64,000 nucleotides of DNA from Acidimicrobiia bacterium. Its GTDB lineage: Bacteria; Actinomycetota; Acidimicrobiia; Spongiisociales; UBA5794. This document shows, in pieces, positions 54,485 to 59,887 of the stretch. The notes beneath the pieces were generated by a model. That model searched no databases, was not told the origin of the DNA, and saw nothing but the letters and a program-made list of their open reading frames with translations. The DNA lies in NCBI GenBank assembly GCA_051002015.1, contig JBPCMS010000003.1, forward strand, positions 1,155 to 65,154. The letters run 5' to 3'. The translations under genes were made by a program, and so were the position numbers. How positions within the stretch are numbered: position 1 is the stretch's first letter; every line of letters begins with the position of its first letter.

Positions 54485-55354
54485 TCACTCGGCGAAGACC
54501 CCGAAGAACCGTACCTCGGCAAGCGCCAACTCGTCGAACGCCGGGCTGTCGCCCACCGGCTCGCCCGGGTAGGTGGTCAGCACCCGCACGGTCAACCGGG
54601 TGGTCCGCAGCGTGTCGAGCGTGATGCGGTGCGGGTCCGAGCTGTCGGGGAGGGTGAAGGTGAGCTGCAACTCGAGATCGTCGACGGTGACCTCAATGTC
54701 CTTGATCCGGTAGTTCTGCCGGAACGGGTTGCGCTGCTGGATGTTGGTGAACTCCATCTCGGACAGGGCGACCGGTTGGGCGAACACGAAGGTGAGCTGG
54801 GCGTCGACACCGCGGGCCGACTGGTCGTTCCAATAGGTGGAGACGTCACCGTCGATCAGGCGTGCGGCCTCGTAGCCTTCGAGATGGGAGCTGGCATCGA
54901 CAGAGGCGGGGGCGATGGCGACCTGCTCGACCGGGTCCTCGATCGCCGCCGTGGTGGAGACGTTGTCCTCGGGTGTGGCCGTCCCGTTCCCGCCACCCCA
55001 CAGGTTCATGAACAGGGCGATGAGGGCAACGAGGAGGACCACACCGCCGAGGACGCCGAGGGCCCGGCCACCGGGGGTCGACCGTGACATCGGCGGCGCC
55101 GCCACCGGGAGGGGCCCTTTTCCCAGCCGGGCGCCGCATTCCTCGCAGTGGCGATTGTGGGCCGGGTTGGGTGCTCCGCACGACTGGCAGCGCACCGTCG
55201 GCACATTCGCCTCCGGGGTGTACTGCTCGACCCGCGGTGGAGCCGTGTACAGGGAAGGGTCGGTCCGGGACACACTCGGCTCGTCCTCGAGCTCGAACGG
55301 CTCGAAGAGGTCGTCGTCGAACGGGTTGTCGGTGTTCTTGGCCACGAATTCCAC
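54485..55354 (-). CDS. Zinc-ribbon, single-TM, discoidin (F5/8 type C)-like domain membrane protein
   Basis: CQSCGAPNPAHNRHCEECGA, TM LGVLGGVVLLVALIALFM, then ...AARLIDGDVSTYWNDQS..LTFVF.., a carbohydrate-binding-like beta-sandwich. Confidence 0.6.
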   Translation of the reverse strand: MEFVAKNTDNPFDDDLFEPFELEDEPSVSRTDPSLYTAPPRVEQYTPEANVPTVRCQSCGAPNPAHNRHCEECGARLGKGPLPVAAPPMSRSTPGGRALGVLGGVVLLVALIALFMNLWGGGNGTATPEDNVSTTAAIEDPVEQVAIAPASVDASSHLEGYEAARLIDGDVSTYWNDQSARGVDAQLTFVFAQPVALSEMEFTNIQQRNPFRQNYRIKDIEVTVDDLELQLTFTLPDSSDPHRITLDTLRTTRLTVRVLTTYPGEPVGDSPAFDELALAEVRFFGVFAE

Positions 55355-55602
55355 GACTGATCGCTGCCCTCGGGTGAGGGCAGCCGGGGGCTATTGTGCC
55401 ACGGATGCTGCTGATCGCAGGTGTTCGCCAGGCCGAGCCCTGGTCCCTCCCCAACATCATCGGCGCCGCCACACTGCTGGTGGCGTTCATCGTCTGTCTC
55501 ATCTGGCTGATCAGGCGCTATCTCGACGGCTGAGCCGTCACCACCCGCCCCCGCATCCCCTCTCGGTTTCTTGTCACACCCTCGCCGTACGGTGTCGGGG
55601 CG

Positions 55603-55716
55603 ATGAAGGAGGCAGCAACGACCGAGCAGACCGTCAGGATGATCCTGGTAGACGACACTTACAGGGTCATCGCCGGCACCAAGCGGTTCCTCGCCGAGAA
55701 GCCGCACCTGCCGTGA
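55603..55716 (+). CDS. Candidate 37-aa small ORF translationally coupled (GTGA) to radA
   Basis: ATGAAGGAGG context. MKEAATTEQTVRMILVDDTYRVIAGTKRFLAEKPHLP. Lower-GC codons. Not in the ORF track because of its size. Confidence 0.25.
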   Translation: MKEAATTEQTVRMILVDDTYRVIAGTKRFLAEKPHLP

Positions 55717-57035
55717 CCCAGCCGTCGACCTACCACTGCCTGGAATGCGGCTACGCCACGGCGAGGTGGATGGGGTTCTGCCCCCAGTGCCGCGCCCAAT
55801 CGAGCATGGTCGAGGGGCTCCGACCGGTGGCGTCGGCGGCCGTCCCGGTGCCCATCGCCGATCTCGGTGAGGCGGGGCGACCCGCCCGGGCGCCGAGCGG
55901 CATGGCCGAGGTCGATCGCGTTCTGGGCGGCGGCCTCGTTGCGGGGAGCATCGTGCTCGTTGGCGGCGAGCCGGGAGTGGGCAAGTCGACGCTGCTTCTC
56001 CAGATGGCGGCGGCGATGAGCAGCACGGGGCGGGTGCTCTATGTCACCGGCGAGGAGAGCGCCGCCCAGATCGGGGACCGGGCGGAGCGGCTGGGTATCA
56101 CCGGTGGCGGCCTCGAGGTTCTCGCCGAGACCGAGGTGGTCCCGGTGGAGCGCTGCGTCGAGATGGGCGGGTACCGCATGGTCGTGGTCGACTCGATGCA
56201 GACCATGCGGGTCGACGACACCGCCGGCACCCCGGGCGGGGTCACCCAGGTGCGGGAGGTGGGGGCGCGCCTCACCGCTCTGGCCCGAAGGGCCGGTGTC
56301 CCCGTGGTGCTGGTGGGCCATGTCACCAAGGACGGATCGCTGGCCGGGCCCAAGGTGGTCGAGCACCTGGTCGACGCCGTCCTCTACCTCGAGGGAGACC
56401 CCGATCGGGGGGTGCGCTACCTGCGCGGGTTGAAGAATCGCTATGGCTCGGTGGCCCAGGTGGGGGTGTTCGAGATGACCGGCGACGGCCTGGTCGAGGT
56501 CTCCGACCCCTCAGGGCTGTTCGTCGGCGACGCCATCGGGCTGGTGCCGGGAACGGTGGTGTTCCCCGCCCTGTGTGGCCGGCGCACGCTGCTGGTCGAG
56601 GTTCAGGCGCTCGTTGTCCCGACCGGCTCACCCCAGCCCCGCCGCAGCGTCACCGGTGTGCCGGCCGGCCGGGTCCACCAGCTCCTCGCCGTGCTCCACC
56701 GCCATGCCTCGCTCGACTGCCGGTCGTGCGACGTGTTCGTCAGCGTGGTCGGCGGGCTGGTCATCGATGAGCCCGCCGCCGACCTGGCGGTGGCCCTCGC
56801 CATCGCCTCGTCACGGCTGGAGAAGCCTCTGGGCCCGGTGGGGGCGATGGGCGAGGTCGGACTGGCGGGCGAGGTCAGGGCGGTGGGGGGCGCCGCCGAC
56901 CGCAGGGCGGAGCTGGCCCGCTTCGGCTTCGAACGGATGATCTCCGGCGGGGGCAGGCGGCTCGTCGCCGAGGCGCTGCTCGAAGCGGGTCTCCGGCCCG
57001 ACCGTCCCCGCCGTCTCCATTCGGCGGGGGGGTGA
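55713..57035 (+). CDS. radA: DNA repair protein RadA
   Basis: C4 zinc finger YHCLECGYATARWMGFCPQC, Walker A GGEPGVGKSTLLLQ, KNRYG motif, Lon-like C-terminal domain. Confidence 0.88.
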   Translation: MTQPSTYHCLECGYATARWMGFCPQCRAQSSMVEGLRPVASAAVPVPIADLGEAGRPARAPSGMAEVDRVLGGGLVAGSIVLVGGEPGVGKSTLLLQMAAAMSSTGRVLYVTGEESAAQIGDRAERLGITGGGLEVLAETEVVPVERCVEMGGYRMVVVDSMQTMRVDDTAGTPGGVTQVREVGARLTALARRAGVPVVLVGHVTKDGSLAGPKVVEHLVDAVLYLEGDPDRGVRYLRGLKNRYGSVAQVGVFEMTGDGLVEVSDPSGLFVGDAIGLVPGTVVFPALCGRRTLLVEVQALVVPTGSPQPRRSVTGVPAGRVHQLLAVLHRHASLDCRSCDVFVSVVGGLVIDEPAADLAVALAIASSRLEKPLGPVGAMGEVGLAGEVRAVGGAADRRAELARFGFERMISGGGRRLVAEALLEAGLRPDRPRRLHSAGG

Positions 57036-57097
57036 TCACGGCGGGCCGGTGAGGTCGTTCGGCGTCGGCGACAGGCGGCTAGTAGCCTCACGACAGG

Positions 57098-58159
57098 ATG
57101 ATGTCTGGGGCCGTTGGATTTCTCGAGGTTCTCGAACAGTTCGCGCCTGGCACCAAGCTGCGTGACGCCGCCGAGCTGATCCTCCGCCAGGAGACGGGGG
57201 CCCTGCTGGTCTTCGGCTCGGCGCCGGAGGTCGACGCGGTGTGCAGCGGCGGGTTCGAGCTGCGCAACGCCGAGTTCACCGCCCAGAGGATCGCCGAGTT
57301 GGCCAAGATGGACGGCGGCATCGTCGTCTCCGCGGATGCCTCGCTGATCATGAGGGCAAACGTCCAGTTCATCCCGGACCCCGCCATTGAAACCAGCGAG
57401 ACCGGCACCCGGTTCCGCACCGCCGAGCGGCTGGCCAAGCAGCTCGGAGTCCCGGTTCTGGCGGTCAGCGAGGAACGGCGAGCGGTCGCCGTCGTTTTCA
57501 CCGGGGACAACCACTTTGCCCTGCGCAACCCCAACGAGCTTCTCGCCGAGGGGAATCAGAACCTGGTCGCCTTGGAGCGTCTTCGGCGCCAGCTGGCTGA
57601 CGCCGAGGACAGGCTCATCCGGCTCGAGGTCGACGACGGGGTGACGGTGCGCGATGTTGCCCTGCTGCTGGCTCGGGCCGCCCTGGTACGACGAATGGGG
57701 GCGCAGATCCGGCGGATCGTGGTCGAGCTCGGCGGTACCGGCGACCTGATTTCGATCCAGGCGTCCGATCTCGGCGAGGGGGTCGACAACGTGCTCGAGC
57801 TGGTCAGCGACGATTACGCCGACCGGCCAATGAAGCCGGGCGAGGCCAGTGATCGACTCCGCAACGTCCCGGACGAGTCTCTGAAGGATCTCGCCGTCGT
57901 CGCCGAGGCTCTCGGGCTGGGCAACCTCGATCAGGCGGTCCGCCCCCGTGGCGGCCGGGCGCTGGAACGGGTATCCCGGCTTCCCGACAACGTCAAGAAC
58001 TCGCTGCTGAACCACTTCGGGACCCTGCAGAAGCTCCTCCACGCCTCGGCCAGCGAACTCGCCGAGGTCGAGGGCGTGGGGCGGACCAGGGCCAACCAGC
58101 TGCGGGGCCATCTCGACCGGCTGCTCCAGCACGGCACACCGTTCGGGCTGGTTGACTGA
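57098..58159 (+). CDS. disA: DNA integrity scanning protein DisA (diadenylate cyclase)
   Basis: DAC domain (GALLVFG...DGGIVVSAD...RFRTAERLAKQ), a linker, and a C-terminal HhH (SASELAEVEGVGRTRANQL). Confidence 0.88.
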   Translation: MMSGAVGFLEVLEQFAPGTKLRDAAELILRQETGALLVFGSAPEVDAVCSGGFELRNAEFTAQRIAELAKMDGGIVVSADASLIMRANVQFIPDPAIETSETGTRFRTAERLAKQLGVPVLAVSEERRAVAVVFTGDNHFALRNPNELLAEGNQNLVALERLRRQLADAEDRLIRLEVDDGVTVRDVALLLARAALVRRMGAQIRRIVVELGGTGDLISIQASDLGEGVDNVLELVSDDYADRPMKPGEASDRLRNVPDESLKDLAVVAEALGLGNLDQAVRPRGGRALERVSRLPDNVKNSLLNHFGTLQKLLHASASELAEVEGVGRTRANQLRGHLDRLLQHGTPFGLVD

Positions 58160-58265
58160 CCTGCAGCGGGGGCAAGGCCGGCGGCGAAGCCAGCGGTGGC
58201 GGTCCGGGCCGAACGCGCCGTTGGGTACAATGCCCCCTCCGATCCTGTCCCCAGAAGGTTGACTC

Positions 58266-59396
58266 GTGGCCGACAAGCAGAGCAGCGACGCGGCCAAGGC
58301 GGCTGCCAAGACGACCACAGCGAAGCCCACCGCCAAGGCGGGCTCGAAGCCATCGACTGCGGCGTCGTCCAAGAAGGCCACGACCAGCAAGGCGGCATCC
58401 GCCACGAAGCCTGCAGCCAAGACCACGGCGGCGAAGTCTGCCGCGGGCAAGTCCTCTGCTGCGGCGAAGTCGGCGGCGGCCAAGCCCTCGGCGGCGGCCA
58501 CGCCTTCGGCGGCGGCCAAGCCCGTGGCGGCGAGGCCCTCGGCGGCCAAGCCTTCGGCGGCGGCCAAGCCTTCGGCGGCGGCGGGCAAGTCCTCTGCGGC
58601 GAAGTCGGCGGCGGCGAGGCCCTCGGCGGCGGCGGCGGGCAAGCCCTCGGCGGCGGGCAAGCCCTCGTCTGCGGCGGCCAAGCCCTCGGCGGCGGCCAAG
58701 CCCTCGGCGCCGGTCACGACCTCGGCCGCCAAGAAGCCCGCAGCGACCAAGGCCGGCACTCCCGAGAAGGCGACTCCTGCCAAGGATTCTGCCGAGAAGA
58801 AGGCGACCCCCAGGAAGGCGGCTGTGGCCAAGGACGTTCCTGCCGCCGAACCTCCGGCCCCGGCCGCGGCCAAGGCGAACGCCAAGAAGCCCTCCCCCTT
58901 CGTCGTCGGGGACAAGGTGGTGTACCCACATCACGGCGCCGCCACCATCATTCGGGTCGAGCAGGTCGACATGGGCAATGGGCGCGAGCCCTATTTCGTG
59001 CTCGAGGTGGTCGCCGACCAACTCATCGTCTGGGTGCCGGTCGAGGGCGCCCTCGATCTCGGGGTGCGGCCGGTGATCTCGACCAACGTCGCCCGCAAGG
59101 TGTTCGCCACCTTCCGTGACGAGCCCCAGGAGGCGGGGGCGAACTGGTCGCGCTGGTACAAGCTGCTCACCGAGAAGATAAACAGTGGCGATATATTCCA
59201 AGTCGCCGAGGTGGTACGCGACCTCACCTACGCCCAGCAGATCAAGGGGATCTCCCCCGCCCTGAAGCGGATGCTGGCCAAGGCCCGGCTCATCATCGTC
59301 AGCGAGCTCCGGTTCGCCCTCAAGGTCGACGAGGAGGATGCGATCCGCCGGCTCGACCGCGCCCTCCCCAGGGTCGACGAGCCGATCGAGCTCTGA
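58266..59396 (+). CDS. carD: CarD/CdnL-family RNAP-binding transcription factor with a roughly 210-aa N-terminal Ala/Lys/Pro-rich histone-H1-like extension
   Basis: C-terminal 160 aa match CarD (FVVGDKVVYPHHGAATI...NWSRWYK...VAEVVRDL...KRMLAKAR). The N-terminus is AAKPSAAAKPSAAAGK-type repeats. Confidence 0.8.
   Translation: MADKQSSDAAKAAAKTTTAKPTAKAGSKPSTAASSKKATTSKAASATKPAAKTTAAKSAAGKSSAAAKSAAAKPSAAATPSAAAKPVAARPSAAKPSAAAKPSAAAGKSSAAKSAAARPSAAAAGKPSAAGKPSSAAAKPSAAAKPSAPVTTSAAKKPAATKAGTPEKATPAKDSAEKKATPRKAAVAKDVPAAEPPAPAAAKANAKKPSPFVVGDKVVYPHHGAATIIRVEQVDMGNGREPYFVLEVVADQLIVWVPVEGALDLGVRPVISTNVARKVFATFRDEPQEAGANWSRWYKLLTEKINSGDIFQVAEVVRDLTYAQQIKGISPALKRMLAKARLIIVSELRFALKVDEEDAIRRLDRALPRVDEPIEL
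58290..58900. repeat. Imperfect tandem nucleotide repeats (GCC/GCG-AAG-CCC-TCG-GCG units) encoding the AKP-rich tail of CarD
   Basis: Repeated strings such as gccaagccctcggcggcggcc and gccaagccttcggcggcggcc are visible across 58430-58720. Confidence 0.5.
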
Positions 59397-59407
59397 TCGG
59401 CAACCCC

Positions 59408-59887
59408 GTGCGCATCGGCTCCGGTGTCGACGCCCACCGCTTCACGCCATCCGGAGGTGTGACCGTCGCCGGTGTGCTGGTCGATCGGACCAGGGGCGTG
59501 GCCGCCACCTCCGACGGTGATGTGGTCGCCCACGCCGTCATCGATGCCGTGCTCGGCGCCGCCGCCCTCGGCGACCTCGGCGACCACTTCCCGTCCTCCG
59601 ACCCCCGCTGGTACAAGGCCGACTCATTGGTGATGCTGGAGCATGCGGTGGGCCTGGTCGCCGACCACGGGTTCGCCGTGTCCTCCGTCGACGTCACCGT
59701 GCTCGCCGAGACGGTGCGGGTGGCCGACCACCGCCCGGAGATGCGAGCCAACCTCGCCGCCAGGCTCGGGGTCGAGGTGGGGGCGGTCTCGGTGAAGGCG
59801 ACCACCATGGACGGGCTCGGCTGGCTGGGGGCCGACGAGGGGATCGCCGCCACCGCCGTGTGTGTGATCGCCCCGATCGCCGGCTGA
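59408..59887 (+). CDS. ispF: 2-C-methyl-D-erythritol 2,4-cyclodiphosphate synthase
   Basis: MRIGSGVDAHRF...DGDVVAHAVIDAVLGAAALGDLGDHFPSSDPRWY. GTG start. Confidence 0.9.
   Translation: MRIGSGVDAHRFTPSGGVTVAGVLVDRTRGVAATSDGDVVAHAVIDAVLGAAALGDLGDHFPSSDPRWYKADSLVMLEHAVGLVADHGFAVSSVDVTVLAETVRVADHRPEMRANLAARLGVEVGAVSVKATTMDGLGWLGADEGIAATAVCVIAPIAG

Follow-up and report, generated by a model that had tools for sequence, protein, structure and literature searches.

A CarD core preceded by a long, basic and repetitive N-terminal tail in an uncultured Acidimicrobiia bacterium and its relatives

Transcription regulators of the CdnL type have been described as standalone proteins of 160-200 aa, which show no intrinsic DNA binding and whose recruitment is thought to be by RNA polymerase (RNAP) (PMC4374960). 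In the mechanism of the CarD/CdnL family, the RNAP-interaction domain (RID) binds the beta1 lobe of RNAP, the C-terminal domain contacts promoter DNA at positions -14 to -10 and a wedge tryptophan keeps the transcription bubble from collapsing (PMC4593161). The gene analysed here is carD of an uncultured Acidimicrobiia bacterium. It lies in a stretch of 64 kb of contig JBPCMS010000003.1 (assembly GCA_051002015.1), which is referred to as the window, and codes for a CarD core preceded by a basic N-terminal tail of 211 aa. An earlier note on this DNA had described such a tail within one open reading frame (ORF), compared it with histone H1 and regarded the domain order as unusual for Actinobacteria.

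A CdnL-like, RNAP-binding module fused to a disordered basic domain is known from myxobacterial CarD. The HMGA domain was reported to be confined to CarD-containing myxobacteria; the CarD of Myxococcus xanthus holds an HMGA-like domain and that of Anaeromyxobacter a histone H1-like domain (PMC4374960). As the earlier note had stated, the basic domain is C-terminal (PMC4374960). Its AT-hooks (RGRP) follow an acidic stretch, and the protein works with CarG and extracytoplasmic function sigma factors, beside a separate essential CdnL. The basic domain of M. xanthus CarD binds DNA, raises activity and can be swapped for other basic disordered domains (PMC4374960). In Actinobacteria, lysine repeats of the type K1-2(A/T/N)3-5 enable Streptomyces TopA to bind DNA, and they are over-represented among DNA-binding proteins. 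FtsK, HupS, Ku and HrdB were named as carriers, and CarD had 0 occurrences in the main text of that paper (PMC5714199). The PAKKA repeats of Mycobacterium smegmatis Ku are a further DNA-binding case (PMC3553676). No paper on an N-terminally tailed CarD/CdnL was found in the literature searched, an absence that is not proof. A survey from 2010 gave lengths of 137-301 aa for actinobacterial proteins, and its retrieved passages were silent on longer forms (PMC2919716). Databases already annotate such tailed proteins automatically.

Every feature by which the CarD/CdnL family is defined in sequence was found in the window protein, which on these grounds is a member of the family. Both Pfam domains were detected well above their cutoffs (Table 1). 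Residues 212-367 aligned end to end with residues 3-158 of Mycobacterium tuberculosis CarD (E=3e-32, PDB sequence search). AlphaFold2 modelled aa 212-370 with a predicted local distance difference test score (pLDDT) above 90 as a beta-rich domain followed by five helices; the RID consisted of beta strands, likewise with pLDDT >90. The top Foldseek matches of the model were the CarD chains of RNAP open complexes, 8hvr_H and 6edt_M, with a target-normalised TM-score of 0.85. The equivalent of the wedge tryptophan, Trp294, was invariant across 56 homologues. The protein ended 12 residues beyond the CarD_C match. From family membership, this CarD would likewise be expected to bind the beta1 lobe and to stabilise open complexes.

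The closest described proteins were the mycobacterial and Streptomyces CarDs (Rv3583c; 4KBM, 6EDT, 8HVR chain H), which shared the RID and C-terminal domain at about 46% identity in the Foldseek alignments, the wedge tryptophan and the fold. They also share the gene neighbourhood radA-disA-carD-isp-cysS. Their chains measure 162 aa in M. tuberculosis and 160 aa in Streptomyces, which bears out a canonical length of about 160 aa, and they are tail-less, whereas about 210 basic residues stood before the RID in the window protein. At 376 aa, of which 211 form the basic tail, it departed from the published description of CdnL (standalone, 160-200 aa and no basic DNA-binding domain; PMC4374960) but remained within the domain definition.

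The tail was rich in Ala, Lys, Ser, Pro and Thr, which made up 39%, 17%, 14%, 11% and 8% of aa 1-211, respectively. Counted over aa 1-207, there were 81 Ala, 35 Lys, 28 Ser, 23 Pro, 17 Thr and 7 acidic residues, the latter scattered. No bulky hydrophobic residue was present beyond Met1. The isoelectric point was 10.8 and the net charge +0.15 per residue. AlphaFold2 modelled the tail as coil with no secondary structure at a pLDDT of about 50, and it is predicted to be intrinsically disordered. The spacing of Lys and Arg peaked at 4-6 residues with a mode of 5. Tandem Repeats Finder (TRF) reported arrays with a period of 18 (14.3 copies, 73% match) and also with periods of 66 and 84. The start-to-start spacings of the repeats were 15, 18, 21, 24, 30, 33 and 36 nt, all multiples of three. 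The true repeat block covered about aa 51-154. On either side of this block, ~50 residues at the start of the tail and ~55 at its end were similar in composition and unrepeated. No second segment of this kind was found in six frames of the 64-kb window. Two statements of the earlier note were confirmed by these data, the presence of a basic Ala/Lys/Pro-rich tail and a CarD core (aa 212-364 by Pfam) in one ORF and the tandemly repetitive nature of the tail-encoding DNA, although the repeats are imperfect.

An N-terminal tail of at least 45 aa was present in all of the 120 best matches to the protein in a database of 5.8 billion proteins. Among the 110 homologues with a placeable core motif, the tail ranged from 45 to 189 aa with a median of 104 aa, and the core was constant at 164-166 aa. 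Four of the other ten were tandem-core forms of 639-657 aa. The window tail was the longest of the single-core forms seen, its sister strain excepted. Many of the homologues carried precomputed PF07382 (HC2) tags, and one was named 'histone H1-like repetitive region-containing protein' at NCBI. For the comparison at genome level, carD loci with a core identity of at least 56% were collected from GTDB species-representative genomes, which gave 43 clade loci (42 genome loci and the window). They were labelled as uncultured Acidimicrobiia, Acidimicrobiaceae or Actinomycetota, and one as Acidobacteriota. The tail was found in 35 of the 39 evaluable loci (Table 1). Together with the homologues, these counts showed that the N-terminal tail is, as judged from the predicted proteins, the normal state of CarD in this Acidimicrobiia clade. 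By the criterion set in the earlier note itself, its view that an N-terminal tail is unusual has therefore to be given up, the tail being already the common form of CarD in the clade. In one locus, L042 (Candidatus Actinomarina, locus GC 32%), the tail had shrunk to a Lys/Thr stub of about 17 aa (MATKTKKTTDKYK...). This stub in an AT-rich member fits the published link of long lysine/alanine repeats to GC-rich genomes.

CarD proteins at about 50% core identity, from other Acidimicrobiia and from Actinomycetes metagenome-assembled genomes (MAGs), had the canonical N-terminus. In twelve of these loci it was the C-terminus that bore an Ala/Lys/Pro- or Lys-rich tail (27-119 aa), so that basic tails have joined CarD at one end or the other depending on the lineage. 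An exhaustive HMMER scan of 1.84 billion cluster representatives returned 3815 proteins (E<=0.001). Of the best matches, 121 were near full length; a basic tail was N-terminal in 6 of these and C-terminal in 5. Most other extensions among these representatives resembled mis-called starts or read-through into ispD rather than basic tails. A neighbour-joining tree of the loci, which was used only qualitatively, resolved two major clades.

The tandem forms were represented by L086 (4001-5920 of ENA ERZ23495796 scaffold_817), P0021, P0032, P0037 and P0052, with 639-657 aa. They were composed of an Ala/Lys/Pro- or Lys-rich tail of about 290 aa, a CarD core, a basic linker of about 30 aa and a second core. 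The two cores were 70% identical to each other and both had the wedge tryptophan. The tandem gene occupied the same syntenic place, in the order disA, carD-carD, ispD, ispF and cysS. P0123 (371 aa) resembled a tail-less tandem form.

A sister strain, L085 (JGI Ga0136619_10001048), had flanks about 95% identical to those of the window gene and a CarD of 416 aa; a partial copy, L084, was present in Ga0136622. The repeat block comprised 402 nt in L085 and 282 nt in the window, a difference of 40 codons. It was made up of six gaps of 15, 18, 6, 33, 15 and 33 nt, all in frame. The copy number thus varies between strains as the earlier note had anticipated, and by in-frame indels only. In the core, seven synonymous changes and one non-synonymous change separated the two strains, as compared to one synonymous and six non-synonymous changes in the unrepeated 5' part of the tail. 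Despite the 40 added residues, the net charge per residue was 0.151 in L085 and 0.152 in the window. From the substitution pattern and the equal charge density, the tail is under constraint for composition and charge but not for sequence or length. Both of the latter change rapidly, as units of 15 and 18 nt are gained and lost in frame, while charge density is kept. Constraint of this kind is typical of a functional disordered region.

Three known kinds of basic domain were compared with the tail. Histone H1 C-terminal domains and chlamydial HC2 (PF07382) are likewise Ala/Lys/Pro-rich, disordered and basic. The relative P0063 passed the HC2 gathering score (44 bits, cutoff 40), while P0013 did not (28 bits). 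In contrast, the window tail taken alone matched neither HC2 nor any other Pfam family at E<=10, and its 17% Lys was about half of the Lys plus Arg fraction of the relatives' tails (0.30-0.38). The likeness to H1 put forward in the earlier note did not stand as a class assignment; it is a resemblance of composition only, not homology. The lysine repeats of TopA, HupS/HupB, Ku and HrdB are low-complexity arrays of lysines separated by three to five small residues in proteins of GC-rich Actinobacteria. The Lys/Arg spacing of the window tail, with its peak at 4-6 residues, resembles theirs, and the tails of relatives are classic PAKKA-type. The well-studied examples are mostly C-terminal, whereas the window tail is N-terminal, Ser/Pro-heavy and lysine-poorer. 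As judged by residue pattern, the tail fits the actinobacterial lysine repeats better than histone H1. In comparison with myxobacterial CarD, the window tail was at the opposite end of the protein, held neither RGRP nor an acidic block and was joined to the syntenic housekeeping carD. The window core was closest to actinobacterial CarD. By these features, the window protein is not of the myxobacterial CarD type, and the two basic domains are independent acquisitions. The likeness to that type is only the general one of an RNAP-binding module coupled to a basic disordered domain.

More probably than not, the tail tethers CarD to DNA non-specifically. This role was inferred from the lysine spacing, which resembles that of actinobacterial lysine repeats, from the charge density conserved between strains and from the convergent acquisition of tails at either terminus. 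The regularly spaced lysines would bind DNA, or nucleic acid in general, non-specifically and electrostatically. CarD would thereby have an affinity of its own for the nucleoid and for DNA that flanks promoters, and it would therefore not rely solely on being carried by RNAP. It would be locally more concentrated at open complexes and stay there longer, with the core working through the usual tryptophan-wedge mechanism. The logic would be that of the basic disordered C-terminal domain of myxobacterial CarD and of the lysine repeats in TopA, HupB/HupS and Ku of Actinobacteria, but arrived at independently and at the other terminus. The N-terminus may accommodate such an extension. An N-terminal SMT3 (SUMO) fusion of CarD was named as a chain in seven PDB entries (9e7v_M and others), and the titles of two of these, 9e87 and 9e88, refer to M. 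tuberculosis RNA polymerase complexes, which suggests that a bulky appendage is tolerated there.

Several observations speak against a tether. The charge density of the tail is low, with about half the value of relatives and of H1/HupB-type tails. Neither an AT-hook (RGRP) nor an SPKK motif was found in the tail, and the HC2 search was negative as stated above. The strict lysine-repeat alphabet K1-2(A/T/N)3-5 fitted only 4 units in the tail; 23 units fitted if Ser, Pro, Gly and Val were allowed in the spacers and Arg counted as basic. Finally, the three tail-less loci and the stub of L042 mean that the tail is dispensable in some backgrounds.

In a different explanation, the tail is a functional disordered region that is not primarily a DNA tether. 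It could serve as an entropic spacer or solubility bristle, as a region that binds RNA or polyphosphate or forms condensates, as a target of lysine modification by acetylation or pupylation, or as a start site for regulated proteolysis of CarD. CarD levels are under proteolytic control in mycobacteria, and CdnL is regulated by ClpXP in Caulobacter. The low charge density and high Ala and Ser content of the window tail, the prediction of pure coil, the lack of sequence constraint combined with retained length and composition, and the tail-less clade members would all agree with such a role. It is nevertheless rather unlikely. The net positive charge per residue was conserved between strains, and the tails of relatives were classic PAKKA-type lysine repeats with a Lys plus Arg fraction of 0.30-0.38. 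This class has been tied to DNA binding by experiment (PMC5714199 and, in its passages on Ku, PMC3553676). In addition, convergent attachment of basic tails at either terminus of a DNA-proximal factor is most simply explained by contact with DNA.

As far as gene structure and conserved signals can tell, transcription and translation run through tail and core together and yield a single protein. The frame opens at the first start codon after a stop: an in-frame TGA at 58260 lies two codons 5' of the GTG start. The GC content at third codon positions (GC3) was 0.874 across the frame, matching the neighbouring genes. The window protein and its relatives had the N-terminal motif M/V-A-[DET]-K-[KQ] in common. 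The end of a TACA[AC]T hexamer was located 9-34 nt 5' of the tail start codon in 22 of 25 related loci, where shuffled sequences would give 0.28, and the other three held TAAAGT, TAGAAT or TAGACT at 27-29 nt. It follows from this -10-like hexamer that the promoter would precede the tail, not the core. A scan of 57900-59600 for sigma-70 promoters with two hexamers and for terminators gave nothing, nor was a -35 element identified. Three independent assemblies, GCA_965610425.1 at NCBI and two Logan run assemblies, yielded the same gene call of 376 aa, and its 1131 nt of DNA were identical in them.

It is very improbable that the long frame is an annotation artefact, with translation starting internally, for example at GTG 58824 (aa 187), and the repeats being an untranslated leader or unrelated sequence. 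This GTG has a Shine-Dalgarno-like AGGAAGG 5 nt before it, and long spurious ORFs do occur in high-GC genomes, as the 770-aa antisense ORF at 56603-58915 illustrates. The relative L001 has a frameshift within its tail. However, the position of GTG 58824 was not conserved, and the 25 codons before the core included no ATG, GTG or TTG in the window gene, the same being true of about half of the relatives. Relatives that lack the tail have an ATG of their own (MAQTASKY...) with a stop closely upstream. An internal start would moreover leave unexplained that the stop is followed by an open frame beginning precisely at the first start codon, that all indels relative to L085 are multiples of three, that the N-terminal peptide motif and the -10-like hexamer are conserved (22/25 loci) and that 35 loci and 120 proteins hold in-frame tails. 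Less probable still, and hardly to be entertained, is that misassembly or collapse of a MAG contig created the repeat block, repeats being error-prone in assembly, and that the true gene is a canonical carD of about 160 aa, given the identical gene in three separately assembled records, the same architecture of the related strain in two JGI metagenomes and its occurrence throughout the clade. Taken together, mis-annotation or misassembly is highly unlikely to account for the tail. For annotation, the lesson is to keep the long ORF, which is correct, and not to shorten it to a canonical CarD start.

L001 was the closest GTDB-representative relative with 85% core identity. Its +1/-1 frameshift lay in the repeats (~2530-2750) and left an ORF of 217 aa. 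Being inside the repeats of a MAG, it is probably a sequencing or assembly error.

The gene order at the locus was radA-disA-carD-ispF-cysS. The neighbourhood radA-disA-carD-isp-cysS is that of the essential carD of mycobacteria including M. tuberculosis. Based on this setting, the window gene is regarded as the housekeeping, CdnL-type CarD orthologue of the uncultured Acidimicrobiia bacterium. ispF started 11 nt past the carD stop, and the two genes are possibly co-transcribed. The coordinates of the features and the composition of the locus sets are given in Table 1.

Table 1. Features of the carD locus in the window and loci or proteins grouped by tail type
Feature	Position in window	Strand	Evidence or remark
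disA, 5' neighbour of carD (synteny marker)	57098..58159	+	Pfam DAC and DisA-linker
-10-like hexamer TACAAT	58226..58231	+	34 nt upstream of GTG
Shine-Dalgarno-like AGAAGG	58253..58258	+	7 nt before GTG; inferred from position only
carD coding sequence	58266..59396	+	376 aa including tail; GTG start
N-terminal tail (aa 1-211), predicted to be disordered, basic (net charge +32) and rich in Ala, Lys, Ser, Pro and Thr	58266..58898	+	Composition, AlphaFold2
Imperfect in-frame tandem DNA repeats, mostly 18- and 15-nt units	58416..58726	+	TRF; encode (A/S)AAK(P/S)S-type hexapeptides
CarD_TRCF_RID, Tudor-like RNAP-interaction domain, aa 212-270	58899..59075	+	PF02559, 36.4 bits, cutoff 23
CarD_C helical domain, aa 278-364	59097..59357	+	PF21095, 88.4 bits, cutoff 23.1, E=3e-25
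Trp294 codon, equivalent of the minor-groove wedge Trp (M. tuberculosis W85, Thermus thermophilus W86)	59145..59147	+	NWSRWYK, NWSRRYK in M. tuberculosis
ispF, 3' neighbour of carD (synteny marker)	59408..59887	+	Pfam YgbB, E=2e-53; gene calls
Clade loci with N-terminal tail			35/43 (35/39 evaluable)
Clade loci leaving the locus edge while still Ala/Lys/Pro-rich			4/43
Clade loci without tail			4/43: L034, L037 and L039 tail-less; L042 17-aa stub
Loci with C-terminal tail			L043, L049, L050, L055, L056, L058, L060, L061, L062, L064, L068, L072
Proteins with C-terminal tail			P0134, P0154, P0162, P0209, P0270

Other observations concerned the surroundings of carD. In the relative L086, ispD was located between carD and ispF, as it is in mycobacteria. 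It was not at that place in the window (59397-59407), and no IspD homologue was found anywhere in the 64 kb by tblastn with the L086 IspD as query. The longest mechanical ORF of radA (54915-57035, + strand) held 706 aa, whereas the gene callers in three assemblies started at 55713 (440 aa). Two tiny called ORFs of 42 and 37 aa lay just 5' of the called radA. The gene 5' of radA (up to ~55354 on the - strand; L081 1-89) coded for a protein of 289 aa with a match to Pfam NADase_transloc (PF25302), and a weak match to the same family adjoined disA in L086. Three long ORFs were rejected. The 770-aa ORF on the minus strand (56603-58915) was a high-GC shadow running antisense through disA and the carD tail; it reads the repeats as acidic AEGLAA units and could mislead gene callers. 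A 402-aa ORF (57993-59201, - strand) was a high-GC artefact overlapping the strongly Pfam-supported disA and carD, and a 307-aa ORF (58196-59119, + strand) was an artefact of the same kind, out of frame with the Pfam-supported genes. No known RNA element was detected in the repeats (Rfam, 57900-59600, E<=1), with two sub-threshold chance matches only. An NCBIfam scan of the full 376-aa protein returned no family at E<=0.01. An exact-sequence look-up of the protein in a cluster collection gave no entry; contigs encoding it were found elsewhere.

In a phylum where lysine repeats decorate many proteins of DNA transactions, a tail on CarD is not surprising, and CarD would join the actinobacterial DNA-transaction proteins that bear such repeats. 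The myxobacterial solution of a CarD plus a basic disordered domain would then also exist in a second, independent phylum, with the domain at the other terminus. A wider reading can be offered tentatively. CarD, as the essential stabiliser of open complexes, might repeatedly have been turned, in several uncultured actinobacterial lineages, from a protein carried along by RNAP into an intrinsically DNA-bound one by a fast-evolving polycationic tail, which is N-terminal in this clade and C-terminal in others, with tandem cores in some relatives. The tail would then contact upstream promoter or nucleoid DNA and shift the set of CarD-dependent promoters. If true, CarD would parallel, in bacteria, an activator that is anchored to DNA by something like a histone tail, and the repeat number of the strain could tune the anchor. 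CarD/CdnL is an essential global regulator that has been studied almost only as a tail-less protein of about 160 aa reaching promoters via RNAP. The large natural set of N-terminal, C-terminal, tandem-core and strain-length variants is a ready experiment on whether direct DNA tethering alters CarD kinetics and promoter selectivity.

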